Below, one piece after another: positions 5,238 through 36,681 of a DNA stretch of 64,000 nt. The position numbers were made by a program, and so were the translations under genes. Below the pieces are notes generated by a model, which worked only from the letters and a program-made list of their open reading frames with translations, was not told the DNA's origin and ran no database searches. Source of the DNA: Methanobacteriota archaeon (GTDB taxonomy: Archaea; Thermoplasmatota; Thermoplasmata; RBG-16-68-12; JAJISG01); assembly GCA_030594205.1 (NCBI GenBank), contig JAUVFR010000001.1, positions 71,870 through 135,869 on the forward strand. Reading direction: 5' to 3'. Position 1 is the stretch's first letter; the number at the start of each line of letters is the position of its first letter.

Positions 5238-5238
5238 C

Positions 5239-8233: not shown

Positions 8234-8596
8234 TCAGAACCCCCGGAAGACTAGGAGATAGACGAGGCCGCTGACGACGATCCACGCAAGCATCCCCCCT
8301 GCGAACAACGCGGCGGGGGGAAGGGTTCGGCCCCGGAGGCGGATCCGGAACACCCCGGCGTTCAGGGACCACCAGGTAATGGCGTGGACGACGGCCATGA
8401 CCAAGACCACGCCGGTGAACGCTCGGAACACAGAGGAGGTGAAGAGAACCCGAAAGGCGTCGAAGAGGCCCCGGTCGGCCAGAAGAAGGAACTGAACCAC
8501 GAAGGCGAGGGCGTAGAGGTACACGAAGATGGAGGTGACCTCGCGGAGCATGTAGAGGAAGTAACGGGGGTTGCGAAGCCACCACGTCGACGGCAT
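8234..8596 (-). CDS. sdhC: Succinate dehydrogenase cytochrome b subunit (SdhC-like)
   Basis: An internal Met (MPSTWWLRNPRYFLYMLREV...) gives about 120 aa with 3 TM helices and a conserved His (VHAITWW). The 197-aa track ORF has a low-complexity N-terminal extension overlapping sdhB. Confidence 0.6.
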   Translation of the reverse strand: MPSTWWLRNPRYFLYMLREVTSIFVYLYALAFVVQFLLLADRGLFDAFRVLFTSSVFRAFTGVVLVMAVVHAITWWSLNAGVFRIRLRGRTLPPAALFAGGMLAWIVVSGLVYLLVFRGF

Positions 8597-21595: not shown

Positions 21596-22750
21596 ATGAG
21601 CATGAGCAAAATTCACATTGCGATAGCTGGTGTGGGTAACTGTGCGAGTTCCCTTCTCCAAGGAATCGAATTCTACAGAACCTCAGGCGACGATCCCATC
21701 GGCCTGATGCACGACGAGGTGCGGGGCTATCGCGTGGAGGACTTGGAAGTGGTGGCCGCCTTCGACGTGGATGCTCGCAAGGTCGGCCGGGACGTGTCAG
21801 AGGCCATCTTTGCTCCTCCAAATTGCACCAAGGTCTTCTATCCCGAAGTCCCCGATTCCGGCGTAACGGTGAACATGGGTCCGGTCCTCGACGGCGTGGG
21901 CGAGCATATGGCGGATTACCCCGAGGACCGCACGTTCAAGGTCGCCGATGCCCCACCGGTGGATGTGGCCGAGACACTCCAGGAAAGCGGGGCCGAGGTC
22001 CTACTCAACTACCTTCCGGTGGGAAGCGAGAAGGCGACACGATACTACGCGGAGAGCGCGCTGGAGGCCGGATGCGCCCTCGTCAACTGCATCCCCGTGT
22101 TCATCGCCTCCGATCCCCACTGGGCCCGCCGCTTTGAACGCGCGGGGGTCCCCGTCGTGGGCGACGACATCAAGTCTCAGGTTGGGGCCACCGTCATTCA
22201 CAGGATCCTGGCGAAGCTCTTCGTGGATCGTGGGGCGAGCATCGACAGGACGTATCAGCTCAACACAGGTGGCAACACCGATTTCTTGAATATGCTCGAC
22301 CGGGCGAGGCTGACGTCGAAGAAGGTCTCGAAGACGGAGGCCGTGCAGGCGCAACTGCCCGTCCCTCTGGACGCCGAGAACATCCACATCGGGCCCTCCG
22401 ACTACGTCCCGTGGCAGAAGGACAACAAGCTGTGCTTCCTGCGGGTCGAGGGGAGGATATGGGGGAACATCCCCGTCGACCTGGAGCTCCGCCTCTCGGT
22501 GGAGGACAGCCCCAACAGCGCCGGGAGCGCCATCGACGCCATTCGCTGTGCGAAGGTCGGACTCGATGAGGGCCTGGGAGGTCCTCTCGAGGCGGTGTCA
22601 GCGTATACCATGAAACACCCTCCGATCCAGATGCCCGAGGAGGAGGCTCGGAGGCGGGTGGAGGAGTTTGTCGCGGGTCAGATAGCGGGGGTGACGGATG
22701 AGGGCGTTGGTCTTAGCAGCTGGGAGAGGGAGGAGGTTATCGAACGGTGA
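21596..22750 (+). CDS. myo-Inositol-1-phosphate synthase (archaeal MIPS)
   Basis: The N-terminal IAIAGVGNCASSLLQGI Rossmann motif, NTGGNTDF and a length of about 384 aa are typical of archaeal/bacterial MIPS. Confidence 0.82.
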   Translation: MSMSKIHIAIAGVGNCASSLLQGIEFYRTSGDDPIGLMHDEVRGYRVEDLEVVAAFDVDARKVGRDVSEAIFAPPNCTKVFYPEVPDSGVTVNMGPVLDGVGEHMADYPEDRTFKVADAPPVDVAETLQESGAEVLLNYLPVGSEKATRYYAESALEAGCALVNCIPVFIASDPHWARRFERAGVPVVGDDIKSQVGATVIHRILAKLFVDRGASIDRTYQLNTGGNTDFLNMLDRARLTSKKVSKTEAVQAQLPVPLDAENIHIGPSDYVPWQKDNKLCFLRVEGRIWGNIPVDLELRLSVEDSPNSAGSAIDAIRCAKVGLDEGLGGPLEAVSAYTMKHPPIQMPEEEARRRVEEFVAGQIAGVTDEGVGLSSWEREEVIER

Positions 22751-23996
22751 CGGCCCGAAGGCCCTGGTCCGTTTGCTCGGCCTCCCGCTCATCACCCGAG
22801 TAATCCTCACCGCCAGGCAGGCAGGGATCCGGGACTTCACCGTCGTCGTCGGCTACCAGGCCCAGGTCGTGATGGAGTCCCTCGGCGACGGCTCCTCCCT
22901 GGGCATCAAGCTCGCCTATGTCCAAAACGAGGCGTGGGAGAGGGGAAACGGTCTCTCCGTTCTGAAGGGGGCACAACAGTTCGGCGAGGAGCGCTTCCTC
23001 CTGTTGATGGCCGACCACGTCCTCAAGCCCGAGATTGTGGCCAGGCTTTCCCGATCGAGAGTCCAGGGGGGCGTTGCCATGGCGGTCGACACCTCCCCCG
23101 GGGAGGAAAAGGTCGCGGAGGCAACCAAGGTATTCGTGGAGAATCGACGCGTCCGACGCGTGGGAAAGGGCCTCGCCACGTTCACCGGAGTCGACATGGG
23201 GGTCATGGCGGGCGGAAAGGAGTTGGCCCGGGCCTTGCAGGCGGCGATCGATGAGGGCCGGGAGGAGCTCGGCGACGCCCTTGACCAGCTGGCCCGCGAT
23301 GGAAAGGTGCGGGCCGTGGAGTTCAAGGGCCCCCTCTGGGCGGACCTGGATACGCCACGGGATTTCCGGAGGGCCAGGAAGGACATGCTGCGTGACCTCG
23401 GCAAGTCCGAGGACGGCCCCGTGGCGAGGTACCTCAACCGTCCTCTCTCCACGCGGCTTTCCGCCCTGCTCGTGAAGACCCGTCTGACGCCGAACCAGAT
23501 GAGCATCTTTGTCCTCGGCCTCGCGTTCCTGGCCTCCTACTTCCTCTTCCTGGGAATCTATCCGTTCCTCCTCGTGGGGGGTATCCTGATCCAGCTCTCG
23601 TCCATCTTGGACGGAAGCGACGGGGAGATTGCCCGGCTGAAGTTCGTATCGACCCAAAAGGGGGGGTGGCTCGACTCCGTGGCAGACCGCTATGCGGATT
23701 TCATCTTCATTTCCGCGCTCGCCTACGGCCAGTGGGCTCTCGCCCCGGACCTCCGTTGGGGGTTCCTTGCCATCTTTGCCATCGTTGGATCCTTCGGCGT
23801 CAGTTACACTTCCGCCGCCTATTTCGCCTCCTTCAAGAGGGGCCATCCCCTCGGCCTCCAGCTCCCGGCGAAGCGGGACAGTCGACTGCTCATTTTGGCA
23901 GCCGCCGCGGTGATAGGGCTCCCCCTTTACGGCCTCCTTGCCGTCGGCGTGCTGGGCAACGCGGAGGTTATCAGAAGGCTCTTGACCTGGCGCTAG
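22698..23996 (+). CDS. Bifunctional CTP:inositol-1-phosphate cytidylyltransferase / di-myo-inositol-phosphate-phosphate synthase (IPCT/DIPPS)
   Basis: An N-terminal nucleotidyltransferase fold (LVLAAGRGRRL) is fused to a CDP-alcohol phosphatidyltransferase membrane domain carrying DGSDGEIARL...GGWLDSVADRYAD. It lies adjacent to MIPS. Confidence 0.82.
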   Translation: MRALVLAAGRGRRLSNGDGPKALVRLLGLPLITRVILTARQAGIRDFTVVVGYQAQVVMESLGDGSSLGIKLAYVQNEAWERGNGLSVLKGAQQFGEERFLLLMADHVLKPEIVARLSRSRVQGGVAMAVDTSPGEEKVAEATKVFVENRRVRRVGKGLATFTGVDMGVMAGGKELARALQAAIDEGREELGDALDQLARDGKVRAVEFKGPLWADLDTPRDFRRARKDMLRDLGKSEDGPVARYLNRPLSTRLSALLVKTRLTPNQMSIFVLGLAFLASYFLFLGIYPFLLVGGILIQLSSILDGSDGEIARLKFVSTQKGGWLDSVADRYADFIFISALAYGQWALAPDLRWGFLAIFAIVGSFGVSYTSAAYFASFKRGHPLGLQLPAKRDSRLLILAAAAVIGLPLYGLLAVGVLGNAEVIRRLLTWR

Positions 23997-24364
23997 CGGG
24001 CCGCGTAGGGGCCACTGATTCATCCTCAGGACGATGTCATGATCCCACCTCACAGAGGCGGCCCCGCAAGCGTTGGCCATGGCGAACCTGACCCTTTCTC
24101 ATCACCGTTTGAGCGGAATGCCTATTGGATGGAGCGGCGGCGTGCTTCTTCCTGCTCCAAGGGCGTGATGTAGCCTGGCCCTTCAGGGGGAGGAAGTTGA
24201 AGTCTTCAACATCTATAAGCCGCGGTTCACGATGCCTGCTCCCGGGGCTCGTAGGTAGCGAACTGGGCCTTCGTCGCTGTCTTTTCTTCGCCGAATTGAG
24301 CGACCCGCTGCCAATCGTGGAAAGCTCCGAACGCTCCTGATCAATGAGCTTGGAAACAGGTCCA

Positions 24365-24655
24365 CTAGGATGAAGCCTCGTAAGCTCTCCTGGTAAGACA
24401 GTCAAAACATAGGCAATGCGCGCCAACCGTTTCACTCACGGCCTTGGTGAGAACCTCTCGGCACCAGCAATCATCACTCTGCACGCCACAGCCAAAGTCG
24501 ATGCCGCATTCAGGACACTTCACAAGCTCGCCAGGCTTCAAGGCTGGCTCCACCATGCCTTCACGCCTCTCACGAGGGAGTTCCACATACGTGTCATGGT
24601 AATCCCCAAGCCGCCCCACAAGCGGATGCCACTCTAACGAAATTCTGATGGGCAC
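24365..24655 (-). CDS. Small cysteine-rich protein (Cys-rich CWC-like: CPECG…CG…DDCWC…CLCFDC)
   Basis: A 96-aa ORF with 9 Cys in a CxxC/CWC/CxCxxC arrangement. The true start may be the internal MVEPALKPGELVKCPECG. Local GC is lower than the flanks. Confidence 0.5.
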   Translation of the reverse strand: MPIRISLEWHPLVGRLGDYHDTYVELPRERREGMVEPALKPGELVKCPECGIDFGCGVQSDDCWCREVLTKAVSETVGAHCLCFDCLTRRAYEASS

Positions 24656-24737
24656 TTCTGTACTAGTCTCTTTGGAAATCGATGCCGGGGTGTGTGGCTA
24701 TGACTGGTTCTAAGTAGGCTAAGGGAGTCTGGCCTAC

Positions 24738-24810
24738 GGGCTCGTAGGGTAGTGGACTATCCTTCCGGCCTTCGGAGCCGGGGACCTGGGTTCGAATCCC
24801 AGCGGGCCCG
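24738..24810 (+). tRNA. tRNA-Arg (anticodon TCG)
   Basis: Manual fold. The acceptor stem is GGGCTCG/CGGGCCC (one T-G wobble). The anticodon stem CCGGC/GCCGG has loop CTTCGGA, giving anticodon TCG. The T-arm is CTGGG-TTCGAAT-CCCAG with discriminator G. No encoded CCA. Confidence 0.85.
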
Positions 24811-24815
24811 TCCTA
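24795..24815. repeat. attL-like direct repeat (tRNA-Arg 3' end, AATCCCAGCGGGCCCGTCCTA)
   Basis: A 21-nt sequence identical to 28256..28276. Confidence 0.8.
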
Positions 24816-24838
24816 GACCAAAAACACTGCGCGCAGGA

Positions 24839-25717
24839 CTACTTTGGAATGAGAGAGGCCAGCATCTGATCTGCATGGTTGACTGCAAGAGAAACGTGGC
24901 CTTCCCCCGGAAACACCCGTAGGTGACTATTCCTGATCATTTCATTCATCAACTTCACCACCCCGAAGGCTGGGTCTTTGTCCCCATGCCAGAAGGTGAT
25001 TCTCTCCCCGCAGGTAATGCCCGATATGTCAAATCCCCAACGACCGGCGAAAGCACGCGCATCATGGAGGGCTGCGTTGATTCCGTGGGAGAATCCCTCC
25101 TTGGAAATCCTGATGTAGAAATCGAAAAACCTGTCGTCGTTGAAAAGCTCAAAGTCGGCAACCGGCATGCGATGCCGATTCCTGTTGATTTGTGACCGAA
25201 ACTCCTCCGGGTCCTCTATGAGCGACATTTGCTTCTTCAATCCCATTCCATAGATCCACGGTAATCTTGAGGCCAGAAACAATTGGGTTCGGAGCGATCG
25301 GTCCATTGTCTTGGTGCCGAGACCTGGAGGGCCAACCGTGCTGATGACACCGTATTGGTAGACCAGATCCCCAATTTCGTGGGCGCAGGCAAGGACGTGA
25401 GGCGCGCCGCCGGATATTCCAAGGAGGGAGAATTCATCGACATCAAGCGTTTCCGTCAGCTCCTTGATGTCCCGGGCCCAGCCCAATAGTGACCGTCTGG
25501 TGAAGGTGGAGTTCCCATACCCCGGGCGATCGGGAACAATCAAACGTAATCCGAGCTTTCTCGCAACTCGGGAGAACATCTCACCCTCAAGCCTGCAATT
25601 TCCGTGGCCATGCTGGTGTATCACTGGAAAACCCTGAAAATCGCCGAACTCCGCGTATGATACGTTCCGGCCGTCTCCGAGGGTAGTCGAACGATCCAAC
25701 ATCTCCGCGGCGGTCAT
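24839..25717 (-). CDS. Alpha/beta-hydrolase fold protein (proline iminopeptidase/esterase-like)
   Basis: HGHGNCRL...PGYGNS and the nucleophile elbow GISGG are present in a 292-aa product. Confidence 0.8.
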   Translation of the reverse strand: MTAAEMLDRSTTLGDGRNVSYAEFGDFQGFPVIHQHGHGNCRLEGEMFSRVARKLGLRLIVPDRPGYGNSTFTRRSLLGWARDIKELTETLDVDEFSLLGISGGAPHVLACAHEIGDLVYQYGVISTVGPPGLGTKTMDRSLRTQLFLASRLPWIYGMGLKKQMSLIEDPEEFRSQINRNRHRMPVADFELFNDDRFFDFYIRISKEGFSHGINAALHDARAFAGRWGFDISGITCGERITFWHGDKDPAFGVVKLMNEMIRNSHLRVFPGEGHVSLAVNHADQMLASLIPK

Positions 25718-25722
25718 ACCGC

Positions 25723-25959
25723 TCAGAGACCCTGTTTCTCAAGATCGCGGTTGATGTTCTCCATCCTCTCGGGAGTCAAATCCCAGTATCTCCAGAAGAC
25801 CAGGGCGGCAACGAGAAGGAATGCGGCGGGGATTAATCCAAAGTGGCTCATTATTCCCCATTTTGCGATCTCACTCTGGGTCGCAAGTGTCGCATCAAAT
25901 CTCACGAGATTATGCACGATTGCCGGCACCGTACCGCCTTGGCCCAGTCTTGCCGTCAT
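25723..25959 (-). CDS. Small membrane protein (1 TM), hypothetical
   Basis: A 78-aa ORF tightly coupled (5-nt gap) upstream of the hydrolase on the same strand, with the hydrophobic stretch FGLIPAAFLLVAALVFW. Confidence 0.4.
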   Translation of the reverse strand: MTARLGQGGTVPAIVHNLVRFDATLATQSEIAKWGIMSHFGLIPAAFLLVAALVFWRYWDLTPERMENINRDLEKQGL

Positions 25960-26103
25960 TTGGCTTTTCCTTCATTTTCTCACTCATACACCATCAACCT
26001 CTACTAAGCATGGCTATTGGCTGAGCATGCTAGATAGGATACTTATAAGCTTAATCGGCAACGAGACGGGCTTTCGACCTGGGTTATTTCAGAATGCGTT
26101 CGA

Positions 26104-27678
26104 CTACGCTATGAGGTTTCCCCGATTCAAAAGGTTAAGAGGGTCGATGCTCAGCTTCATAGACCGGACGGACCTCAATCCCTTCTCTCCGTACTGAGTA
26201 TACAATGCCGGTTTTCCTCTTAGGGTCTTCTTGCCCAATCCATGCTCGGCAGCGATTGACCCACCCAGAGAAACGACCTTCTCTGCGATCTCCGCCAACC
26301 GGGCCTTCGCAGTATCGGCCTGATGATCATTTCTGGGTAGGAGCGTGAGGTGGACGTGGGAGTCCCCCGCGTGGGCAAAGAAGACGTACCCGAGAGCATC
26401 CAGTGATTGGAGGCCGTCACGGACAAGAGATTCGAATTCGGCTCCAACTTCGAGCAAATGGTAAAACAGTTCACTGAAGCTCGTTTGAGGAACGGAGTAG
26501 TCGGTAGCCACGAGGGACTGATCATGAGAGCGGGTGAGGGAAAGAACGTGCTCGGGCACGCTGTGCCTTAGTTCTTTGTGATGTTCGATTTCAGCGTGGG
26601 TAAGGGCGACCGAAGTATCGAGGATTTCGAGTTCATCGAACCTGTTTTTCCACCATTCCAATGCTGGATAGAGTTCGGAACTGGAGCGTACATCTTGTTC
26701 CAACATTATGATAGAATGGGCAAGAGGCGGGATCCGCGGATCTACCTGCTTGACAATTCTGGTGGCTCGGTCATCAAGAAACTCCACTGACATTGGGACT
26801 GGGAAACTGTTTGTGCCGCGTTGTTCCTGTGCAACTCGGATGACGTCAAATGCTTGGTCTAAGTTCTTGCACATGACAAAGATGCTCGCTATCTCTTCTG
26901 GGGGTCGTGTCAAACGCAGGGTGACTTCGGAGATGACACCGAATATCCCGTTCGTGCCAATGAAAAGATCAATGGGATGACTGTTGTCCGTGATGACCGG
27001 TCCTGCAACATTCTTGGTGACTTGAGGCAATTCATAATCGGGGCGGGGGATCCTAATCTCCTCGCCGTGAGCAATCAGGATAATGTAGTCCTCTTCGACG
27101 TAATGAGGCCGGGCCTGGTCCCTCCGTAACACGATGCAGTGACCCGGGGGGATGATCACCCTAAGCCCCTGAACCCAGGGCCTGGTAGGGCCGAATTTGA
27201 AGGTTCTTGCTCCAGAGGCATTTGTGGCCACGTTACCCCCGATGAATGAACCCCTCTCAGTGGAATCGGGCGGATAAAACCAGTTGTGTTCCCGTGCAAA
27301 GTTCTGCACTGCTTTGAGGGTCATGGCAACTGGCAGGGTCAGATAGGCCAATTCTTCGTTTACCTCCTCGAAACGGAGATGGTAGGTGATGTCGGTGTCG
27401 GGATCGGTCCACTCACGTGAGGGTGCGGCGGCAATCTCCCTCATCTTGTCCGTCGCTATGATCCATCCCCCGAGTGGAACTCTGCCGCCCGATAGTCCGG
27501 TGCCCCCGCCGGAAACTGTAATTGGGATGCTTTGGGAATAGGCCTGAACGATGATTTCCAAAAGCTCGGTCTCTGTCCTCGGAAAAAGTATCTTGTCCGC
27601 GGTACCTCTGACCAGGCCGGATTCATCATTGAGGTAGCTCGAATATTCGGTGGATACCTCTTGATATTGCTCGATCAA
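26104..27678 (-). CDS. FAD-linked oxidase (PCMH-type FAD-binding; GlcD/D-lactate dehydrogenase/AGPS family)
   Basis: The FAD-binding motif SGGGTGLSGG is present, with C-terminal HAGDSHVHL and AEHGLGKK, in a 524-aa product. Confidence 0.8.
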   Translation of the reverse strand: MIEQYQEVSTEYSSYLNDESGLVRGTADKILFPRTETELLEIIVQAYSQSIPITVSGGGTGLSGGRVPLGGWIIATDKMREIAAAPSREWTDPDTDITYHLRFEEVNEELAYLTLPVAMTLKAVQNFAREHNWFYPPDSTERGSFIGGNVATNASGARTFKFGPTRPWVQGLRVIIPPGHCIVLRRDQARPHYVEEDYIILIAHGEEIRIPRPDYELPQVTKNVAGPVITDNSHPIDLFIGTNGIFGVISEVTLRLTRPPEEIASIFVMCKNLDQAFDVIRVAQEQRGTNSFPVPMSVEFLDDRATRIVKQVDPRIPPLAHSIIMLEQDVRSSSELYPALEWWKNRFDELEILDTSVALTHAEIEHHKELRHSVPEHVLSLTRSHDQSLVATDYSVPQTSFSELFYHLLEVGAEFESLVRDGLQSLDALGYVFFAHAGDSHVHLTLLPRNDHQADTAKARLAEIAEKVVSLGGSIAAEHGLGKKTLRGKPALYTQYGEKGLRSVRSMKLSIDPLNLLNRGNLIA

Positions 27679-27974
27679 AGTCGGTCACCTGAGGTGTCAT
27701 TCAAATCAGCTGAGGCCGGTTCCACGAGTTCTAGCCGGTTCCCGGTAGGGTCCCGGAAACGGGCCAATCGACCGCGGCCGCTGGCCACACCATAGGCCTC
27801 GATGCCGTGAGGAAAGGTGACACCCGCGGCGGGGAGCCGCTCCATGACGGACTCCAGGTTTGTCACCCGAAACCCCATGTCTCCGCTCGGACCCTTACCG
27901 GGCTCCTCGCAGAAGCCCCAAAGCGCCTCGACCCGCTCCTGGAAGTTCTCCAGGGCCTTGAAGGGGATGTTCAC
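27675..27974 (-). CDS. VOC/glyoxalase-family protein, short and probably N-terminally truncated
   Basis: RFRDPTGNRLELVE and FRVTNLESVMERLPAAGVTF match the C-terminal half of a glyoxalase/bleomycin-resistance fold. An in-frame TGA lies 13 codons upstream of the GTG start, so a full domain cannot be encoded. Confidence 0.45.
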   Translation of the reverse strand: MNIPFKALENFQERVEALWGFCEEPGKGPSGDMGFRVTNLESVMERLPAAGVTFPHGIEAYGVASGRGRLARFRDPTGNRLELVEPASADLNDTSGDRL

Positions 27975-28255
27975 TCCATCGGCGTGGCGGGCCCGCTGCG
28001 ACTCCCGTTCGGATCATTCATTTCCGCCGTCTACTATCCCCTGATATGGACAGGAATATCAGCGACTTAGCCTTTCCGATGGGACAAGAACCTCACGCCT
28101 TTTTCGGTGGGACAACATAGAAGGCGATCCCAGGATTTGGGTAAGCCAGAGCAGGCCGAAGCGCGCAGAAAGGGAATCAACCCATTCTATCCGATTCACT
28201 CCCCCGGCAATGCGCCGTCTTAACTCAGTGAGCGGTTCGGATACTGGGGTATCCC

Positions 28256-28276
28256 AATCCCAGCGGGCCCGTCCTA
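28256..28276. repeat. attR-like direct repeat (copy of tRNA-Arg 3' end)
   Basis: AATCCCAGCGGGCCCGTCCTA is identical to 24795..24815. The preceding CTGGGGTATCCC resembles a degenerate T-arm. Confidence 0.8.
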
Positions 28277-28304
28277 TCGGGAGCATACCTTTTTCTGGAG
28301 AACC

Positions 28305-29950
28305 GTGACTTCGACGCGGGGGAGTGGCACGAACCCAGGTACGGAGTTTTCTGATCTAGCCGAAACGATTCTCGACGGCGTCTTCGAGAGCGACCCTCGA
28401 CGGGCGGTGCAGCTGGGATTTCACGAGTACGACGGGCGGCTACCTGATGTGGAGCCCGGCCGCATTAAGGAACGTATCACACGCACTCGGGATCACCTCA
28501 CGCGACTCACGGCCCTTGGCGACCTATCGCCGGATTCGGACGCCGAGCGTGAAATGCTCGCCTCCATCCTCGAGGTCACCCTGTTTCAGCTTGAGGATCA
28601 GGCGATTCCGTTCCGGAATCCTGGTGTCTATGCCTTCATGTTGAGCCTGGTCCCTACCTGAGTCGTGAGTACGCCCCCCTCCCCGAGCGGTTCGAGGCGG
28701 TGCTGACCCATCTCAAGAACGTTCCTCGCTTTCTGGACCAAGCCGAGGCCAACTTGGAGGAGGCGCTCCCCATGCCCTTCGTGGAGTTGGGGGTCATCGC
28801 CTCGCAAGGCATCGTCACGAGCTTCCGCCGGAACATCCCGGAGGAGGCGGCGAAGGTGTCGCAGGAACTCCGGGACCGGGTCATGACACAGACCGAGAAG
28901 ACCATCGAACGAATCGAGGCCTTCCAGGGACGCCTGGAGAAGGAGTGGCGTCCCCGGGCGAATCAGGATTTCCCCCTCGGGCCCGACCGGTACCGGCGCA
29001 TGTTGTGGGCCCAGGAGCGAATCGACCTCCCTCTGGACGAGCTGGAGGCCATGGGCCAGGCGAATCTGGAGGAGAACAAGGAAGCCTTCCTGGAGACGGC
29101 GAAGCAGATCGACCCCAAGAAGACGCCGCAGGAGGTCATGGCCCTCGCCGAGGAGGACCACAGCACGGCAGATGCCCTCCTCCCCGAGACGGAGGAGATG
29201 CTCGAAGAACTCCGACAGTTCCTCCTTGACAAGGACATCATCACGATTCCCTCGGAGGTGCGCCCCATCGTGACCGAGACGCCCTACCACTTCCGCGCCT
29301 GGGCGACGGCGGCCATGAATTCCCCGGGCCCTTTCGAGGTGCAGGGAGACGAGGCTTACTACTACGTCACCCCCGTCGAGCCGGATTGGTCCGAAGAGAA
29401 GGCGGAGGAGTGGCTGCGATACATGAATCGACCGAGCCTCAAGAACATCAGCGTCCATGAATGCTATCCGGGGCACTACGTTCACATGCTCCATCGGAAG
29501 CTCCTCCCCTCGAAGATTGGCCGCATCTACACAGGCTACGCCTTCACGAAGGGGTGGGCCCACTACACGGAACAGATGGCCCTCGAAGAAGGGCTGGGGG
29601 AGGGGGATCCCCGCCTCCGCTTGCTGCAACTGCAGGATGCGCTCCTCCGCAACTGCCGGTATCTCTGTTCCATCGGCCTGCACACAAAAGGCAAGACCCT
29701 CGACGAGGCCACGGCGTTCATCATGGAGAACGCCTTCATGGAGCAGGGCCCCGCGGCGCGGGAGGCCTTCCGAGGAACCTTCGACCCCGGCTACCTCAAT
29801 TACACCCTGGGCAAGCTCTTCATCCTCCAGGTCCGGGAGAAGTTCTTTGCGGCCCACCCGGAGGCGACGCTGCGGGAGTTCCACGACAAGTTGCTGGCTG
29901 GGGGCGCCCCGCCGATTGGCCTCCTTGAGAAGCTGGTTTTGGCGGAATAG
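28305..29950 (+). pseudogene. DUF885-family protein (HExxH-containing, bacterial-type) interrupted by a frameshift near 28600-28700
   Basis: ORF 28305..28661 matches the DUF885 N-terminus (LGFHEYDGRLPDV...). ORF 28700..29950 carries the remainder, including HECYPGHY. The upstream frame-2 translation (…PYLSREYAPLPERFEAV) is continuous with the second ORF. A C7 homopolymer lies nearby. Confidence 0.7.
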
Positions 29951-30034: not shown

Positions 30035-31213
30035 TTGGACGGTCCTGTGATCCTGGGCGCCGTCCGAACGCCCGTGGGCAAGTACGGACGGGCCCTCCGC
30101 GACGTTCCCGCCACCCGCCTAGGCGCCCTCGCCATCGAGGAGGTCGTGCGGCGGACTCGTGTCGATCCGACGGACGTGGAGGAGGTCATCATGGGCAACG
30201 TTATCCAGGCGGGTCTAGGCCAGGCACCCGCCCGTCAGGCGTCTCTCCTCGCCGGCCTCCCGGAGATGGTGGGTGCCGTCACGATCAACAAGGTCTGCGC
30301 ATCGGGCCTCAAAGCCGTGACCCTGGCTGCCGATACCATCCGGACGGGGGACCAAGACCTCGTCGTCGCAGGGGGCATGGAAAACATGAGCGCGGCCCCG
30401 TATCTGCTGCCCAAGGCCCGTTGGGGCTACCGGCACGGCAACGCAGAGCTAGTGGACGCGATGGTCCACGACGGACTGTGGGATGTGTACAACAACTTCC
30501 ACATGGGCATCACCGGCGAAGTCGTGGCGGAGAAGTACGGGATTACGCGAGAGGAGCAGGACGCCTTCGCCTACGAGAGCCACATGCGGGCGCTGAGCGC
30601 GATCAAGCAAGGCCGATTCGAGGCGGAGATCGTCCCGGTTCCGCTCGAGAGACCGGAGGGAGAAGCCCTCTTCGAGGTGGACGAGGGGGTCCGACCGGAC
30701 ACCTCCCTCGAAAAACTCGCCCGCCTGCCTGCTGTCTTTCAGGAGGGGGGCTCGGTCACCGCGGGGAACTCCTCCCAGCTGAGCGACGGGGGCGCCGCCG
30801 TCGTGGTCGCCTCGGCGGATCGGGCTGACGAGATGGGCGCCAAGCCCCTGGCCCGCATCCTCGGGTACGCCACAGGCGGCGTCTCCCCGAGGAACGTCAT
30901 GGAAGCCCCCATTCCCACGGTCAACGCGCTGCTCCAGAAGCTGGAGCTGACCATCCACGACTTCGACCTCTTCGAGCACAACGAGGCCTACGCCGCCGCC
31001 TCCCTTGCCGTCGCCCGACAGCTCGAGATTCCCATGGACAGGCTGAACGTGAACGGCGGAGCCGTCGCCCTCGGTCACCCCTTGGGATGCACGGGGGCCC
31101 GCATCCTGACGACCCTCCTCCACGCCATGCAGGATCGCGGTGCCCGACGCGGTCTCGTGACCCTCTGTCTTGGTGGCGGGAACGCCGTGGCCGTCGCCGT
31201 CGAGACGACCTAG
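30035..31213 (+). CDS. Acetyl-CoA C-acetyltransferase (thiolase II)
   Basis: The catalytic Cys context (NKVCASGLKA) is present, with C-terminal GHPLGCTGARIL and CLGGGNAVAVAVE. Confidence 0.92.
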   Translation: MDGPVILGAVRTPVGKYGRALRDVPATRLGALAIEEVVRRTRVDPTDVEEVIMGNVIQAGLGQAPARQASLLAGLPEMVGAVTINKVCASGLKAVTLAADTIRTGDQDLVVAGGMENMSAAPYLLPKARWGYRHGNAELVDAMVHDGLWDVYNNFHMGITGEVVAEKYGITREEQDAFAYESHMRALSAIKQGRFEAEIVPVPLERPEGEALFEVDEGVRPDTSLEKLARLPAVFQEGGSVTAGNSSQLSDGGAAVVVASADRADEMGAKPLARILGYATGGVSPRNVMEAPIPTVNALLQKLELTIHDFDLFEHNEAYAAASLAVARQLEIPMDRLNVNGGAVALGHPLGCTGARILTTLLHAMQDRGARRGLVTLCLGGGNAVAVAVETT

Positions 31214-31281
31214 CGCCCCCGAACCACCCGGAAAGCCTTTTAGGTTCGAGCCTGTTTCTTCATGGTTTGACCGGTTCCCCC

Positions 31282-34200
31282 ATGCTCCACACCGTAACCA
31301 AGCAAGGCTCCAAGGCGGACATCCTCGACCTGATGGAGGATCTCGTCCGGCGCTGGTTCGACCACAAGTTCGAGACTTTGACGGAACCCCAGGCCTACGC
31401 GGTGCCCCTGATCCACGCGGGGGAAAACGTCATCGTCTCCTCGCCGACGGGCTCCGGGAAGACGCTGACGGCCTTCCTTTCCATCATCAACGAACTCTAC
31501 GCCATCCAGAAGAAAGGCGAGCTCGAGGACAAGATCTACTGCCTCTACGTCTCCCCCCTGAAGGCCCTGGCCAACGACATCAACCGAAACCTACGCGAAC
31601 CTCTGGCGGAAATGGAGGCCTTGGCGGACGAGGAGGGGCTCGAGTCACCTCAGATCCGGGTCGCCGTTCGGTCCGGGGACACGTCTTCCAGCGAACGGCA
31701 GAAGCAAGCCCGCCGCCCGCCGCACATCTTCATCACGACCCCCGAATCGCTGGCCATCATCCTCTCCACACCCGTCTTCCGCCGGAAGTTCCAGGACGTC
31801 CGCTGGGTCATCCTGGACGAGATCCACGAGATCTGCTCCAACAAGCGAGGGGCCCATCTGTCCCTCAGCCTCGAGCGGCTCGGGGAACAGGTCAACGCCC
31901 CCTTCCTCCGCATCGGCCTATCCGCGACCATCGCGCCCATGGAGGAGGTGGCCAAGTTCCTGGCGGGGTACGAGGACGGGCGCCTCCGTCCGATGAACGT
32001 CGTGGAGGTGGAGAGCCAGAAGCGGTTGGACATGCGCGTCCTCTGCCCGGTGCGGGACATGACGTCCCTTCCCTTCGAGGTCGTCAACGCCCGGATGTAC
32101 GACCAGCTGAAGGGGATGATCGACGACCACCGAACGACCCTCATCTTTACGAACACCCGCAGCGGGACGGAGCGGCTCTCTATCAAACTCAAGGACCGGG
32201 GGGTGGAGGACCTCGAGGCGCACCACGGGAGCCTGAGCAAGTCCGTACGCCTGGACGTGGAGGAACGCCTCAAGGCGGGCAAGCTGAACGCCGTCGTCTC
32301 CTCCACCTCCTTGGAGTTGGGCATCGACATCGGGTACATCGACCTCGTCGCCCAGGTGGGCTCGCCCAAGTCGACTGCCAAGGGGCTACAGCGGGTCGGG
32401 CGGGCGGGCCATGCCTACGGCAACGTGAGCGTCGGACGCCTCATCGTGTTCGAGAACGACGATTTGCTGGAGTGCGCCGCCCTCGTGCGAGCGGCCTACG
32501 AAAACAGCATCGATCGGGTGGACATCCCCACCAACTCGTTGGATGTCCTCGCCCAAACCCTCGTCGGCATGAGCCTCGAGCAGCGGTGGGAGATTGACGC
32601 GGCCTTCGCCTTGATCCGGCGATCCTACTGCTACCGCCGCCTCCCCCGGAAGGACTTCCTCTCCGTCCTCCGGTACCTCTCCAGCCGGAACCCCGACGTT
32701 TCCGTCTATGCGAAAATCTGGCTCGACGAGGAGGAGGGCCGGTTCGGGCGGAAGCGCGGGAGCCGCATGATCTACTTCACGAACGTGGGAACGATTCCGG
32801 AGGAGGGGAACTACCGGGTCATCACCCACCACGGGGTCACCATCGGGACCCTCTCCGAGAAGTTCGTGGAGCAGCTGACCCGGCACGACGTCTTCGTCCT
32901 CGGCGGACGAACCTATCGGTTCGAGCGGGTTCGGGGGATGAAGGCCTTCGTCAAGGACGCCTCGGGCCGCCGTCCCACTGTACCCTCCTGGACCGGGGAG
33001 ATGCTCCCACGGAGCTTTGACCTCTCCCTGCAGGTGGGCCGTCTCCGGCAAGAGACCCTCCGGCGTGTGGACGGGGAGGGAGAGGCCGCGGCCATGGCCT
33101 GGCTCGAGGAGACGTGCCGGGTGGACCACGGATCCGCCCGTAGCCTCGTGAATTACCTGCTCGAGCAGCGGGCCATGGTCCCCCAGTTGCCGACGGACGA
33201 AGCCGTGGTCCTGGAGGGCTACATCGACATCCGGGGGAACCGAAACATCGTCTTTCACTACTGCTTTGGCCGCCGGACCAACGATGCCCTCGCCCGGGCC
33301 TACGCTTTCGTAATCTCCAACGCCCTGGAGTGTAACGCCCGTGTCTCCGTCACCGACGACAACTTCATGGTCACGATCCCGAAGCGGGCGAACCTGGAGG
33401 AGATCGTCGGTCTCCTGAAGAGCCACGAGCTCGAGGACCTCTTGCGCCGGGCCCTCCGGAACACGGAACTCTTCAAGCAGCGCTTCCGCCACTGTGCCAC
33501 GCGGAGCTTCATGATCCTCCGAAACTACCGGGGCCATCAGGTCTCCGTCGGGCGGCAACAGATCCGCTCCCAACGGGTGCTGGACTGGCTCCACGAGCTG
33601 GAGGACTTCCCGGTCATTCAGGAGAGCTACAACGAGATTCTCAATGACGTCATGGACCTCCACCACGCCCGACAGGTCCTCCAGGGGATCGAGGAGGGTC
33701 GGATCCAGGTCCACCTGACCTCCTGGTCCAACGTCCCCTCCCCCCTCGCCCACAACGTGGTGTTGGCCGGCATCAGCGACATCGTCCTCATGGAGGACCG
33801 GAGCGCCATGCTTCGGGACCTGCACCGCAAGGTCCTCCGACGGGTCGTCCCCGAGGAGCAACTGCAGGAGGTCCAGTTCACGGAACAGCAGGTCCAGGCG
33901 TACTTCCGCCAGAAGGCTCCGCGGGTTGCTTCTCGCGAGGACATCCTCCCCCTCCTGGAGAAAACGGGCGCTCTCAATCTGCTCCAGCAGAAGGGTCGAA
34001 ACGTCTACGACCTGGCCGAGGCCGACCCCGAGACCGTCCGGGCGTGGTGTGAGGAGCTGGTCGAGGAGGGCAGGGTCGCCTCCGTGTGGACACCCAAGGG
34101 CGTTCTCTGGGTTTCCACCACGGATGTGCCCGCCTACGCCGCCGTGTACGCTCGACCGCGGCGGCCGCGAACCCGCGATCGCCGGGTTCTGGATCACCTC

Positions 34201-36681
34201 GAGGAAGGGGCCAAGACGGCGAAGGAACTCGGTCGGGAACTCGAGGCGCCCCGGGTCGAGGTGAACGACGCCCTCCGCCGCCTCGAGCGGGGCTACCGTT
34301 TGGCCCGGCGAGGGCTCGCGGAGCCGGCCTACGAACCCCGGGAGGTGGAGGCCGACCGGTTCGAGGAGGCGTTGGACCGCCTGGTGGTCCGCTTGCTTGA
34401 GTTCCAGGGGCCGATGACCCTCGAGGAACTCGCGTACGAACTCGATCTGAAGGGGGAGATGCTCCAGGAGGCGTTGAACGGCTTGGTGAACGAGGCCACC
34501 CTCGCCTCGGGGCACTTTGTGGTGGACGAGGCGTACCAATACCTGGTCGCCCAAGACCTCCGCCGACTCGAGGCTCGAGAACAAGCGCTCCCCACCTTCG
34601 AGGAGACGGCGGTCCGGTCGTATCTCCTGGCCAAGCATTTCGAACGCCTCGACTCCGTGGATGCCTACTTCGATCGCTTCCTGGAGGCGGGGATCCTCTT
34701 CGACGTCTTCCAACGGGTCGAGGGCTTCGACATGGAAGATTGGTACCGCCGGCGGGAGGCGGGGGAGATCCTGGAGGGCCGGTTCCTCCGTGGACGAGTG
34801 CGGTACGTGCGGCGGGAGGAGGCTTCCCTCTTCGCCTCGGCCTACCGGCGCCCGCCGCTCGGGCCGCTGGAGGAACGCGTACTGACGGCGGTTGCCCGGG
34901 AAAACGGCCTCGACCTCGACCAGGTTACCGAGGCGGTGGGAGCCGACCGGGGGCGCGTGAAGGAGGCGCTGCATGCGTTGGACCGGGGCCTTCACATCAT
35001 CCGCAAGTTCACCGGCAGCGACGCCTGGACGACGAAGAACATCTACGTGGCCTACGAACCGGCGGACGAGCTGCCTGACGCCCAGGAGGCCATTGTGCGG
35101 CGGTTCCTCCGGGCATACGGCCCCGTGAGTCCCGCCGGCGTCAAGGGTTACGCCGGGTTCGGGTACGCCGAGACGGAGGGGCTCGTGGAACGCCTTCTCG
35201 AAGAGGGGGTCGCCACGAAGATCCTCGTGCAGGGGGACGGCGATGTCGAGATGCTTCTCCTCACCGAGGAGCTGCCGGCGCTCCAGGAAGTCCCCGCGCG
35301 GGCGCCCTCTGACAGGTTGCGAATCCTCTCCCTCCAGGATCCGTGGATCCGGCCGATGTGGGCGGAGGTCAACAGTCGATACGGCGACGGCTGGTACTAT
35401 CCTGTGGTCAAGGACGGCAAGCTCGTGGGGATGGTGGAGAAGTGGCAGATGAGCGGGTGTCTCGAGGTCCGAGAGATCGAACTGGACGACCCGGGGCTGC
35501 TGCCGGAGCTCCTGGTCGCGGTGCAAGGGATGATGGGCTTCTACGCGCAACGAGGCTACGAGATCGTTCGGGTCGTGGGCGCCTTCGGGAAGTCAGTCCT
35601 AGATGCCGGAGTCTCCGAGGCCTTCGAGGAGGCGGGCTTCCATCCGACAAACGACTTCTTCGCCTGGGGGGAGATGATCCCCCAGCAGCACTCGTGGGAG
35701 GAGGTTCTCAGTTACGTCTTCTACCGCCAGGGCATCCATCCGGACCGACGATTCAAGGACGCCTTTGCGGCCATCGAGGCCCTGGGAGGCCTCCGGTCCG
35801 ACTTCGCCTCGCTCCTGCGGACCCGACGGTTCACCCCGCTGAAGGAACTCTTTGAGAAGGGCCTCGTGGCGAAGGGCGTGGCCATTCCCCCCTACGTCAC
35901 GTACTGTACGGAGGAAGACCTGGAGCTCTACCGCGCGGCCAAGTCCGTGCCGATGGAGGAGGACATGGAGGAGGTGTGGGAACTCATTCGGGAGGGCGAA
36001 CCCATCTCGAAGGGGCGCCTGGTCGCCCTTGCCCCATTCCCCGAGGCGGTGACGGAGCGCGCCTTGCAGAAACTGCATAGGGCCTCCCACGTGACCCGGG
36101 ATCCGCGCCACAGGTACCGTACCGTGGGCGATGCAGGGCTCGAGCCATTGGAGGCGAAGAAGGTCGTCCTCCGGAAGGTCTTCGAGGCCTACGGCATCTT
36201 CAGCGCCGAGAACCTGGGGGCCTACACGCGGGGCCACTTCCGCATGGGGGAGATTCGGCGGATTCTCCGGGAGCTGGAGCGGGAGGGCGTCTTGGTCAAG
36301 GGGTTCTTGATCGAGGGAGAACCGGCGGTGTATTGGATGCTGAATGACGGCCTCCTGGGGAAGACGCCCTACAAGGGCCAGTTCGTCCTTTCGCCTTGGG
36401 ACAACCTCTCTTTCTACCTCCGGGATTACCTCCATGAGCGATGGCGGATGGGGAGTTGCTACGCGGCCTTCGATGGCTCCCGGTCCGTCGCGGCCTTCAA
36501 GGCACGCAAGCGGGGCGACGAGCTCGTGATCACCGAGTACCAGGGGGACTCCGCGGCCCAGGAGCTTCTCCGCGCGTTCGCGTACCAGAACGACCTGGCT
36601 CTCCATGCCGAAGGGGAGGAGGCGGACGAGTGGGAGCTGATTCGCTGGTACGAGCGCATGTATGGAGGGGTACGGGAGTAG
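31282..36681 (+). CDS. lhr: Lhr-like ATP-dependent DNA helicase, long form (1799 aa; SF2 helicase core + Lhr domains + about 900-aa C-terminal extension)
   Basis: Walker A (SSPTGSGKT), DEIH, motif VI (QRVGRAGH) and Lhr-core conservation up to about residue 900 are present. A long C-terminal region contains winged-helix-like segments. The start is ATG 31282, because the track ORF start at 31087 overlaps the thiolase. Confidence 0.88.
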   Translation: MLHTVTKQGSKADILDLMEDLVRRWFDHKFETLTEPQAYAVPLIHAGENVIVSSPTGSGKTLTAFLSIINELYAIQKKGELEDKIYCLYVSPLKALANDINRNLREPLAEMEALADEEGLESPQIRVAVRSGDTSSSERQKQARRPPHIFITTPESLAIILSTPVFRRKFQDVRWVILDEIHEICSNKRGAHLSLSLERLGEQVNAPFLRIGLSATIAPMEEVAKFLAGYEDGRLRPMNVVEVESQKRLDMRVLCPVRDMTSLPFEVVNARMYDQLKGMIDDHRTTLIFTNTRSGTERLSIKLKDRGVEDLEAHHGSLSKSVRLDVEERLKAGKLNAVVSSTSLELGIDIGYIDLVAQVGSPKSTAKGLQRVGRAGHAYGNVSVGRLIVFENDDLLECAALVRAAYENSIDRVDIPTNSLDVLAQTLVGMSLEQRWEIDAAFALIRRSYCYRRLPRKDFLSVLRYLSSRNPDVSVYAKIWLDEEEGRFGRKRGSRMIYFTNVGTIPEEGNYRVITHHGVTIGTLSEKFVEQLTRHDVFVLGGRTYRFERVRGMKAFVKDASGRRPTVPSWTGEMLPRSFDLSLQVGRLRQETLRRVDGEGEAAAMAWLEETCRVDHGSARSLVNYLLEQRAMVPQLPTDEAVVLEGYIDIRGNRNIVFHYCFGRRTNDALARAYAFVISNALECNARVSVTDDNFMVTIPKRANLEEIVGLLKSHELEDLLRRALRNTELFKQRFRHCATRSFMILRNYRGHQVSVGRQQIRSQRVLDWLHELEDFPVIQESYNEILNDVMDLHHARQVLQGIEEGRIQVHLTSWSNVPSPLAHNVVLAGISDIVLMEDRSAMLRDLHRKVLRRVVPEEQLQEVQFTEQQVQAYFRQKAPRVASREDILPLLEKTGALNLLQQKGRNVYDLAEADPETVRAWCEELVEEGRVASVWTPKGVLWVSTTDVPAYAAVYARPRRPRTRDRRVLDHLEEGAKTAKELGRELEAPRVEVNDALRRLERGYRLARRGLAEPAYEPREVEADRFEEALDRLVVRLLEFQGPMTLEELAYELDLKGEMLQEALNGLVNEATLASGHFVVDEAYQYLVAQDLRRLEAREQALPTFEETAVRSYLLAKHFERLDSVDAYFDRFLEAGILFDVFQRVEGFDMEDWYRRREAGEILEGRFLRGRVRYVRREEASLFASAYRRPPLGPLEERVLTAVARENGLDLDQVTEAVGADRGRVKEALHALDRGLHIIRKFTGSDAWTTKNIYVAYEPADELPDAQEAIVRRFLRAYGPVSPAGVKGYAGFGYAETEGLVERLLEEGVATKILVQGDGDVEMLLLTEELPALQEVPARAPSDRLRILSLQDPWIRPMWAEVNSRYGDGWYYPVVKDGKLVGMVEKWQMSGCLEVREIELDDPGLLPELLVAVQGMMGFYAQRGYEIVRVVGAFGKSVLDAGVSEAFEEAGFHPTNDFFAWGEMIPQQHSWEEVLSYVFYRQGIHPDRRFKDAFAAIEALGGLRSDFASLLRTRRFTPLKELFEKGLVAKGVAIPPYVTYCTEEDLELYRAAKSVPMEEDMEEVWELIREGEPISKGRLVALAPFPEAVTERALQKLHRASHVTRDPRHRYRTVGDAGLEPLEAKKVVLRKVFEAYGIFSAENLGAYTRGHFRMGEIRRILRELEREGVLVKGFLIEGEPAVYWMLNDGLLGKTPYKGQFVLSPWDNLSFYLRDYLHERWRMGSCYAAFDGSRSVAAFKARKRGDELVITEYQGDSAAQELLRAFAYQNDLALHAEGEEADEWELIRWYERMYGGVRE

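Follow-up and report, generated by a model that had tools for sequence, protein, structure and literature searches.

CIMEs of Streptococcus and other Firmicutes are decayed ICEs or IMEs that kept attL and attR and lost their integration and transfer genes; loss of the integrase together with both retained att sites defines the class (PMC5704250). Archaeal tyrosine-integrase elements of the pNOB8 type and of the 'suicidal' SSV type target tRNA genes at their 3' end, with a block of identity that extends from a loop to or past the 3' end (PMC8371274, PMC7253208). The 3' end is the preferred position of archaeal integrases, with variable 5' limits (PMC8371274). SSV-type integration cuts the int gene into pseudogenes which decay fast, and the integrase of an incoming element has been proposed to excise integrase-dead archaeal elements (PMC7253208). 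Such elements are mainly known from Sulfolobales, Thermococcales, Archaeoglobales, haloarchaea and Thaumarchaeota, and the Thermoplasmata lineage studied here is absent from this non-exhaustive survey of cited literature (PMC8371274, PMC7253208). The pTN3-like elements of Thermococcales integrate into the 5' half of tRNA genes, according to work cited in PMC8371274.

We analyzed 64 kb (here referred to as the window) of a metagenome-derived contig of 283,814 bp from an uncultured Thermoplasmata archaeon. An initial annotation had described a low-GC island at its tRNA-Arg(TCG) gene. This island (24816-28255, 3,440 bp between the repeat copies) is probably a horizontally acquired, non-autonomous, CIME-like islet that was recently mobile, most likely via site-specific recombination of the tyrosine-integrase type. 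Its target position agrees with the 3'-end preference of archaeal integrases. As in CIMEs, it is bounded by att direct repeats at the tRNA 3' end, attL and attR are both retained, only cargo without integrase or transfer genes is present, and the site was hit repeatedly. Unlike CIMEs, its host is an archaeon (Thermoplasmata), no helper element was found in our searches, and it is very small (3.4 kb) with fragments making up half of its ORFs. The features of the region are as follows.

24183-24265, + strand: 5'-side relic of an older event, promoter-like stretch plus degenerate tRNA-Arg 5' fragment
24266-24737, no strand: 0.47-kb low-GC segment (GC about 0.56) from the relic 5' fragment to the present tRNA
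24365-24655, - strand: Cys-rich CWC ORF (Pfam PF14375, E = 1.5e-5)
24705-24737: promoter region of the present tRNA (24705-24759 is 92.7% identical to positions 1-55 of contig L003)
24738-24810, + strand: tRNA-Arg(TCG), intact, integration target (ARAGORN; Rfam tRNA 57.7 bits, E = 6.6e-11)
24795-24815, + strand: attL core, direct-repeat copy 1, from the 3' part of the T-loop to 5 nt beyond the discriminator
24816-27838, - strand: shared 3,023-bp cassette with hydrolase, MFS_2 fragment, FAD oxidase and 3' part of the VOC fragment
24839-25717, - strand: alpha/beta hydrolase of 292 aa with a GISGG nucleophile motif, apparently intact (Pfam Abhydrolase_1, Abhydrolase_6)
25723-25959, - strand: C-terminal fragment of a GPH/MFS_2 cation symporter, 78-aa ORF, pseudogene remnant
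26104-27678, - strand: FAD-linked oxidase / 2-hydroxyacid dehydrogenase, an intact 524-aa protein of the GlcD / D-lactate dehydrogenase family (PF01565, PF02913)
27675-27974, - strand: VOC/glyoxalase fragment, 5'-truncated, 99 aa, about the second half of the domain
27975-28255, no strand: right arm of the island, non-coding, all frames without Pfam or PHROGs match
28238-28255: tRNA-like P arm, CGGATACTGGGGTATCCC, last 18 nt of the right arm, directly before the attR core
28256-28276, + strand: attR core, copy 2 of the direct repeat; next comes the host flank, which in L002 directly follows the tRNA
28305-29950, + strand: host flanking DUF885 gene, frameshifted (frames 28305-28661 and 28700-29950)

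The tRNA gene was placed by ARAGORN and Rfam on the + strand between 24737/24738 and 24810/24813. The repeat AATCCCAGCGGGCCCGTCCTA has exactly two exact copies (21/21 nt) within the 64 kb, 24795-24815 and 28256-28276 as first reported, and a third copy was absent from the window even with up to 3 mismatches allowed; 100 shuffles gave 0 matches, and chance would predict none. It consists of the last 16 nt of the tRNA and 5 nt downstream, and thereby spans the 3' part of the T-loop, the 3' strands of T-stem and acceptor, the discriminator and 5 nt past the tRNA. As in tRNA-integrated elements in general, the direct repeats are formed from the target tRNA and an intact tRNA stands at one end. The degenerate T-arm-like stretch that had been noted before the distal copy was recovered as a weak similarity (CTGGG...CCCAG) in the preceding 18 nt, the P arm. 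Since the core includes a self-complementary GGGCCC, an inverted partial copy of it (27988-28004, 15/17) was rejected as likely due to chance.

The GC content of the island was 54.3% and that of the remaining window 64.6% (z = -11.7, compared with 263 windows of the same size), and no second low-GC stretch was present in the window besides the island zone. The proposed drop in GC content was therefore found, though with 0.495-0.62 per 400-bp window its range differed from the 45-55% given before. Likewise, the region between the repeat copies is indeed low in GC, but the low-GC zone begins upstream of the tRNA at ~24,000-24,180 and is not confined to the island. The suggested tetranucleotide comparison gave an L1 distance of 0.426 for the island versus 0.156 ± 0.013 elsewhere, which is 2.3 times the maximum found elsewhere (0.189). 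GC3 was 0.60-0.63 in the island genes and about 0.8-0.89 in host genes. Low GC content, a direct repeat of the tRNA 3' end, metabolic cargo and variable occupancy in relatives are shared with bacterial tRNA-linked islands. Most of these keep an integrase pseudogene next to the tRNA, whereas the cargo of the islet comes within 23 bp of the core, counted from the stop codon of the hydrolase to attL. This left spacing is unusually tight for a decayed element.

All four ORFs of the island are located on the minus strand, in accordance with the initial annotation, and comprise two intact genes and two gene fragments. For the hydrolase the top PDB match was a pimeloyl-ACP methyl ester carboxylesterase (9wlv, E = 1.1e-15), and its homologs have 288-312 aa. 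The oxidase matched LctD (7qh2_C, 1e-29) and additionally glycolate oxidase, D-LDH and D-2HGDH in the PDB; its match to TIGR00387 glcD (5.5e-48) lies under the cutoff of that model, and the homologs are 521-532 aa in size. The ORF previously called a small membrane protein is in fact the C-terminal end of a GPH/MFS_2 symporter, with matches to positions 370-436/437 of NCBIfam TIGR00792 (E = 6e-6), 373-443/457 of PRK09848 and 373-423/427 of Pfam MFS_2. Together with the VOC fragment, which covers positions 75-121/121 of Pfam Glyoxalase (E about 1e-3, slightly under the gathering score) and has an in-frame stop codon upstream, the number of truncated cargo genes is two and not one. Beyond the island copies, the nearest relatives reached <=55% identity for the oxidase, the named ones being Heimdallarchaeota/Hodarchaeales, and <=46% for the hydrolase. 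The nearest relatives of both were located on contigs of 33-38% GC, and the two genes were paired again on an unrelated low-GC archaeal contig. In composition as well as in phyletic affinity the insert is foreign.

No integrase was detected in the island, neither of the tyrosine nor of the serine recombinase type. None was found in the four ORFs with Pfam, PHROGs and NCBIfam. Open frames of at least 25 aa in the non-coding parts (27940-28310 and 25940-26120) contained no integrase remnant either (Pfam and PHROGs, E up to 1-10). For an 83-aa open frame across attR a phmmer search of 1.8 billion representative proteins gave no credible homolog and only two repeat-like matches. The initial annotation had likewise noted no recombinase. 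The window gene list is housekeeping-like, and no recombinase was among its ten unassigned ORFs. With archaeal tyrosine-integrase elements the islet shares the tRNA 3'-end target, the identity block from loop to past the 3' end, the tRNA rebuilt at attL, the foreign composition and the empty site in relatives; unlike them, it lacks an integrase gene, genes for replication, viral or conjugation functions and also int(N)/int(C) stumps as expected for the SSV type, which were undetectable at either island border. A search for a parent element was negative as well: the island had no blastn match in PLSDB plasmids or GenBank phages, and no relatives of the oxidase were found in JGI metagenome contigs nor of the hydrolase in IMG/VR. 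Exact patterns of the P arm plus core and of the core had 0 matches in viral and JGI metagenome contigs; the junction of a circularised islet would read P arm, core, GACCAAAAACACTG. A transposon or insertion sequence was also considered and rejected, since no transposase was found, no terminal inverted repeat was among the inverted repeats listed, and the repeat is a 21-bp piece of a tRNA and not a short target-site duplication.

The genome of a sister species, L002 (Thermoplasmata MAG FS_3_bin.22), carries the empty site. Here the tRNA 3' end (55 nt, 100% identical to the window tRNA) is directly joined to the DUF885 flank, which is 84.6% identical over 3.9 kb to the window sequence after attR. 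This arrangement, a tRNA-Arg directly before the DUF885 gene, had been named beforehand as decisive; with the perfect repeat and the foreign composition it bears out the proposed insertion into the tRNA. The DUF885 gene of the window, with Pfam DUF885 matched on both pieces, carries a 1-nt deletion near 28651 as seen by alignment to the genes of L002 and of another MAG, L003 (540 aa), which are intact in both. In L003 the same tRNA site is occupied by different cargo, a 288-aa methyltransferase, followed by a decayed pseudo-tRNA of 60 nt (~75% identical; score 29 vs 8.6 ± 1.7), so the site has been hit repeatedly.

Scars were also found on the 5' side. In L003 the 5' end of the tRNA recurs as a perfect 22-nt direct repeat on either side of 7.46 kb. 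The relic in the window (24183-24265) is homologous to L003 7453-7536, which there represents the promoter and the first 21 nt of an intact tRNA (local alignment score 41 vs 8.9 ± 1.5 in shuffles). Its degenerate tRNA-Arg 5' fragment, GGGCTCGTAGG-TAGCGAACT (24245-24265), was not significant on its own against the whole window. Both arrangements resemble pTN3-like integration, and in each the tRNA receives a new promoter and 5' end from the element. They differ from it in that the 5'-side islets have neither integrase nor stumps and belong to another archaeal class, and they are neighbouring scars and not the 3' islet itself. All four islets at tRNA-Arg(TCG), in the window and L003, are cargo-only and have no integrase remnant.

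Copies of the island with 98.6-99.5% identity and different flanks were present in other metagenome assemblies. One of these, L001, is a near-identical, island-only contig which ends before either core is reached. In L082 the cassette (24816-27838) aligns to positions 1597-4619 with 98.6% identity (42 mismatches, no gaps), and the homology ends at 24816, the base that directly follows the attL core. This copy is located between purL and an M20 peptidase, has additional island-specific sequence on both sides as well as a BglII-like fragment, and lies between the copies of an imperfect direct repeat of 82 nt. Neither a tRNA nor a significant remnant of one was found beside it; at least the L082 copy is therefore not derived from simple integration at a tRNA site. 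A clean empty site for this context was not obtained among the nearest M20-peptidase contigs L086 and L087 (91% aa identity of the peptidase), in which the homology begins only 36 bp upstream of the gene and the upstream neighbour is MgtE instead. In two further contigs, L088 and L089, the island's right arm with its P arm is joined to a variant tRNA-3'-like core, AATCCCGGTCGGCCCGTC, with 3 substitutions. Divergence starts within this core immediately past AATCCC, the flank beyond it is an unrelated one, and the homology of the L089 flank to the methyltransferase islet of L003 was not significant. Both contigs would be compatible with a CIME-type tandem accretion beside an attR-type site. This variant core and the near-identical copies in other contexts are indirect hints that the integrase of a related element may have mobilised the islet. 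Of the two options offered at first, a decayed remnant or a mobilised cargo cassette, both fit: half of the ORFs are fragments, yet highly similar copies exist in other contexts.

According to the preferred reading, a tRNA-mimicking attP would have recombined with the stretch from T-loop to 3' end of the host tRNA-Arg(TCG). Integration would have restored an intact tRNA at attL, and the displaced block of 21 identical bp would have ended up at attR. The parent was probably a larger tRNA-targeting archaeal integrative element, from which both att sites were retained and the integrase was lost, and the cargo is a patchwork of two intact genes and two gene fragments. The crossover was presumably located in or beside the T-loop, and the ancestor of the islet presumably once carried genes for integration and transfer. 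Neither the island nor the tested ORFs of the window yielded an integrase, so we infer the catalyst and did not see it; it would be a tyrosine integrase that acted in trans or has since been deleted.

The main rival is a dead remnant only, in which a single integration of an autonomous element or provirus, its integrase possibly of the 'suicidal' SSV type, was followed by internal deletions that left just the cargo. The islet would never have moved, and the contexts of L082 and L088/L089 would go back to larger parents with the same module, by separate integration or by rearrangement. The fragments (2/4 ORFs) fit this reading, as does a dN/dS near neutral between copies for the hydrolase (8 non-synonymous, 3 synonymous differences) and the MFS_2 fragment (6 and 0, against L082). 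The fast decay of SSV-type int pseudogenes (PMC7253208) speaks for it as well, and the extra island sequence and BglII-like fragment of L082 are expected from module shuffling among larger elements. However, an int(N)/int(C) stump is undetectable at both borders, the direct repeats are still perfect, and the copies are nearly identical across samples. Moreover, the homology in L082 ends at the boundary of the att core and the right arm in L088/L089 adjoins a second tRNA-like core; these breakpoints suggest that the ends themselves are recombination-active, and we regard a dead remnant only as rather unlikely.

The absence of an integrase near the islet, the extended, imperfect tRNA similarity of the attR-proximal arm and the cargo-only content of all four islets would suit a Campbell-type insertion, in which circular foreign DNA with a tRNA-Arg-like stretch entered by homologous or microhomology-mediated recombination and the shared segment was duplicated. 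Against this, 21 bp of identity is short for homologous recombination, the repeat limits match tRNA landmarks (T-loop and 3' end, on the 5' side the end of the D-arm) as is typical of tyrosine integrases (PMC8371274), and the divergence inside the core of L088/L089 is expected from a defined crossover point, which makes such an insertion very unlikely. An assembly artefact, with an islet from another replicon or organism threaded into the chromosome contig via the shared 21-mer, has to be considered for a metagenome-derived contig whose attL and attR junctions are supported by one assembly. The island-only contig L001 stops before both cores, and the contigs of L002 and L003 end precisely 55 nt away from where the sequences diverge within the tRNA, which suggests branching of the assembly graph. 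But two chimeric joins would be needed on an identity of 21 bp, far under usual final k-mer sizes, L088/L089 independently join the right arm to a tRNA-like core, and independent insertions occur at the same site in related genomes. An artefact is thus extremely improbable.

The CIME-like islet is a real and fairly ordinary small genomic island, a well-supported case of something familiar and not a new mechanism. It documents a recent and verified horizontal acquisition by an uncultured Thermoplasmata archaeon, for which the empty site is the proof. For part of the cargo, the closest relatives with names belong to the Asgard archaea (Heimdall group). Across related genomes, a single tRNA gene bears integration scars on its 5' and 3' halves. 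Small att-flanked islets without integrase are known in bacteria as CIMEs, and the cited literature holds no comparable archaeal description. The near-identical copies in different contexts represent a concrete and testable case for trans-mobilisation in archaea. It is a speculative and improbable extension that tRNA-Arg(TCG) in this lineage is a two-sided docking platform for cargo-only cassettes with tRNA-mimicking att sites of a 3'-end and of a 5'-half type, whose insertion, exchange and transfer from site to site would be the work of a recombinase encoded elsewhere. The four islets without integrase remnant hint in this direction, as do the 98.6-99.5% copies of the window islet, which lie at other junctions that break at the att core. 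If true, the cassettes would represent archaeal elements free of an integrase and mobilised in trans, and would be analogous to CIMEs or integron cassettes.

The only tRNA gene in the window is a tRNA-Arg(TCG) at 24738-24810 on the plus strand (57.7 bits; ARAGORN and Rfam agree). As the initial annotation had described, its 3' end recurs exactly as a 21-mer, AATCCCAGCGGGCCCGTCCTA, with copies at 24795-24815 (attL core) and 28256-28276 (attR core); no third copy was found in the window with 3 mismatches allowed, and none in shuffles. The repeat comprises the last three T-loop bases, the 3' strand of the T-stem, the 3' strand of the acceptor, the discriminator and 5 nt past the gene. The degenerate T-arm-like stretch proposed in front of the distal copy was also recovered, as a weak similarity over 18 nt (P arm, 28238-28255; CTGGG...CCCAG, loop longer). 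An inverted partial copy of the core (15/17) lies at 27988-28004, just upstream of a truncated VOC gene, and is probably due to chance, since the core contains the palindromic GGGCCC.

Junctions of the island (a slash marks each boundary)
attL, tRNA core to island: ...CCCGTCCTA / GACCAAAAACACTG
attR, P arm, core and flank: ...GGGGTATCCC / AATCCCAGCGGGCCCGTCCTA / TCGGGAGCATACC
Empty attB (predicted): tRNA...CCCGTCCTA / TCGGGAGCATACC
Circular attP (predicted): ...GGGGTATCCCAATCCCAGCGGGCCCGTCCTAGACCAAAAACACTG

The 3,440 bp between the repeat copies had a GC content of 54.3% compared with 64.6% in the remaining window (z = -11.7 against 263 windows of equal size). The tetranucleotide distance was 0.426 versus 0.156 +/- 0.013 (maximum 0.189), and the third-position GC of the island genes was 0.60-0.63 versus about 0.8-0.89 in host genes. 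The drop in GC was thus confirmed, but the range of 45-55% given initially was slightly too low, as 400-bp windows ranged from 0.495 to 0.62. The island is the sole low-GC stretch of the 64 kb. Its low-GC zone begins before the tRNA because a second scar, with a relic at 24183-24265, is located upstream.

All four ORFs of the island are located on the minus strand.

Cargo genes of the island
24839-25717, minus: alpha/beta hydrolase, 292 aa, intact (Pfam; PDB 9wlv, 1.1e-15)
25723-25959, minus: C-terminal fragment of a GPH/MFS_2 symporter, 78 aa, matching the last ~70 model positions
26104-27678, minus: FAD-linked oxidase of the GlcD / D-lactate / D-2-hydroxyglutarate dehydrogenase family, 524 aa, intact
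27675-27974, minus: VOC (glyoxalase-type) fragment, about the second half of the domain, with an in-frame stop codon upstream

Strand, truncated VOC gene, FAD oxidase and alpha/beta hydrolase had been recognized correctly. The supposed free-standing small membrane protein was rejected, as 25723-25959 corresponds to the end of the GPH/MFS_2 model; hence two cargo genes are truncated instead of one.

The island contains neither an integrase or transposase nor any replication or viral gene. Open frames of >= 25 aa in its non-coding parts yielded no recombinase (Pfam and PHROGs, permissive thresholds), nor did the 83-codon frame running through attR when searched against 1.8 billion representative proteins, so that the reported lack of a recombinase or its remnant in the island held. 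Among the checked window ORFs beyond the island no recombinase was present either, and the remaining gene list appears to be of housekeeping type.

By family membership, the oxidase is a putative FAD-dependent 2-hydroxyacid dehydrogenase and the hydrolase a putative generic esterase or thioesterase-type enzyme. A set of VOC/glyoxalase, hydrolase and D-lactate-type dehydrogenase would be reminiscent of a route from methylglyoxal to pyruvate, and a catabolic cluster would be a fitting place for an MFS_2 importer. With the VOC gene and the transporter both truncated, no more than the oxidase-hydrolase pair is predicted to be active.

A search with the flanking DUF885 protein in species-representative genomes yielded two close relatives, both Thermoplasmata MAGs. 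In FS_3_bin.22 (L002) the contig starts within the tRNA, its 55 nt being 100% identical to window 24758-24812, and the tRNA directly adjoins the window flank following attR (84.6% identity across 3.9 kb); this is the empty site that the initial annotation had proposed to look for. The second relative, K_1_bin.30 (L003), carries a different cargo at this site (7593-8530), a 288-aa SAM-dependent methyltransferase. It is followed by a 60-nt pseudo-tRNA-Arg of ~75% identity to tRNA positions 16-76 (similarity score 29 versus 8.6 +/- 1.7) and by the intact DUF885 gene. This is an older, decayed insertion of different cargo. The window being occupied, L002 empty and L003 filled otherwise, three related genomes therefore represent three states of one site, and the island is an insertion into the tRNA gene.

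Both MAG contigs are SPAdes-style 'NODE' contigs which start exactly 55 nt before the divergence point within the tRNA (1-55 in each). This has the look of a branch in the assembly graph (k = 55) and suggests that occupied and unoccupied variants of the site coexist in those samples. The DUF885 gene beside attR (28305-29950) falls into two frames in the window, since one nucleotide of a C-run near 28651 is missing relative to the intact genes of L002 and L003 (540 aa in L003); either the gene is a true pseudogene or the homopolymer was misassembled.

The tRNA's 5' half carries scars as well. The L003 contig begins with the window-type tRNA promoter and the first 22 nt of the tRNA, and this 22-mer is perfectly repeated (34-55 and 7516-7537, within 1-7537). 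Between the copies lies a low-GC segment of 7.46 kb, followed by the full tRNA, whose promoter differs from that of the window. The segment encodes an S8 peptidase frameshifted into 558 aa and 1080 aa and a 725-aa surface protein with a Big_5 domain. In the window, a relic homologous to the L003 promoter and tRNA 5' end (24183-24265; score 41 versus 8.9 +/- 1.5), consisting of a promoter and a degenerate tRNA-Arg 5' fragment, is located upstream of the live tRNA at a distance of 470 bp. A 0.47-kb low-GC stretch (24266-24737) with a Cys-rich CWC ORF (24365-24655, minus strand) comes next. The whole stretch, 24183-24737, has the appearance of an older insertion scar within this tRNA gene's 5' half and is the mirror image of the L003 5'-side arrangement. 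The tRNA-Arg(TCG) gene is thus a hot spot on both sides. Targeting of the tRNA 5' half has so far been peculiar to pTN3-like integrases (PMC8371274); the 5' islets share this side of the tRNA, but neither the L003 segments nor the window 5' stretch contains an integrase.

Near-identical parts of the island were found in contigs of other assemblies. One of 3,276 bp (L001) consists of island sequence only (99.45% identity). In another (L082), window 27838-24816 is present with 98.6% identity, flanked by purL on one side and an M20 peptidase plus purS on the other, with no tRNA in this context. The homology ends at the first base past the attL core, beyond which only 7/9 positions match after a 2-nt indel. 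The L082 low-GC region (1117-5062) has the two copies of an imperfect direct repeat of 82 nt at its borders (1148-1229 and 4914-4995; 21/22 matches across the first 22 nt), and its VOC remnant is shorter than that of the window and fused to a weak BglII-like endonuclease fragment. Between window and L082, synonymous and non-synonymous differences numbered 8 and 7 in the oxidase, 3 and 8 in the hydrolase and 0 and 6 in the MFS fragment. These counts, too small for firm conclusions, are compatible with weak or relaxed constraint.

Contigs from two further read sets (L088 and L089) contain the right end of the island, from 28273 downwards including the P arm (99.25% identity). Here (1-110 and 1-150, respectively) the right arm is joined to a variant tRNA-3'-like core with three substitutions, AATCCCGGTCGGCCCGTC, and the flank beyond is unrelated. 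Divergence starts directly after AATCCC, as would be expected of a defined crossover within or beside the T-loop. The arrangement fits integration of the same element into a second tRNA-like target, a second element in tandem at attR, or the attP of a larger parent element. A tRNA ending in ...AATCCCGGTCGGCCCG would be the candidate second target. The flank ends an ORF with the C-terminus ...GWDLKPLSAEESRLLAVARN before the stop, which gives the impression of a class-I methyltransferase. It is evident from the near-identical copies at other junctions that the module, and apparently the island ends too, recombined over a span of no more than about 1% sequence divergence.

No relative of the FAD oxidase exceeds 55% identity once its own 99% cluster is set aside. 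Named relatives belong to Heimdallarchaeota, Hodarchaeales and Kariarchaeaceae, on contigs of 33-38% GC. For the hydrolase, identity falls from 97% straight to 46%. In an unrelated archaeal contig of 38% GC (L085, 1053-3556) a 46%-identical hydrolase adjoins a 52%-identical FAD oxidase in convergent orientation; the pair is therefore a recurrent unit also outside the island. A weak CdvA match was seen near this pair.

The anatomy matches what a site-specific recombinase of the tyrosine type leaves on integrating DNA at the 3' end of a tRNA. The identity block extends from a tRNA loop to beyond the 3' end, the tRNA is rebuilt at attL and the attR arm mimics the tRNA; the site is empty in a sister genome and has been used repeatedly by different cargos. 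Anatomy of this kind has been described for archaeal integrative elements (PMC8371274, PMC7253208), which the islet resembles in its att sites, but it has no integrase itself and is therefore non-autonomous. One alternative, a fixed, dead remnant, departs from this reading chiefly on the question of whether the small unit has moved on its own account. Integrase-independent Campbell insertion via short homology is another alternative to recombinase-mediated integration. A chimeric assembly is unlikely, because it would require two joins on a 21-mer and because independent contigs show the right arm beside a tRNA-like core.

The host flanks (21596-23996 and 31087-36681) encode a myo-inositol-1-phosphate synthase and a fused NTP-transferase / CDP-alcohol phosphatidyltransferase (IPCT/DIPPS-like), which suggest di-myo-inositol-phosphate synthesis and a thermophilic lifestyle, as predicted from these genes. 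They also contain an unusually long ORF of 1,864 codons that appears helicase-like.

Apart from the GC range, the second truncated gene and the upstream low-GC zone, the initial view of an integrase-less islet integrated site-specifically into a tRNA gene was essentially right. The islet is genuine, recently acquired, without integrase and located in a tRNA hot spot of an uncultured Thermoplasmata archaeon; it would become more notable only if trans-mobilisation of cargo-only cassettes in archaea were shown.
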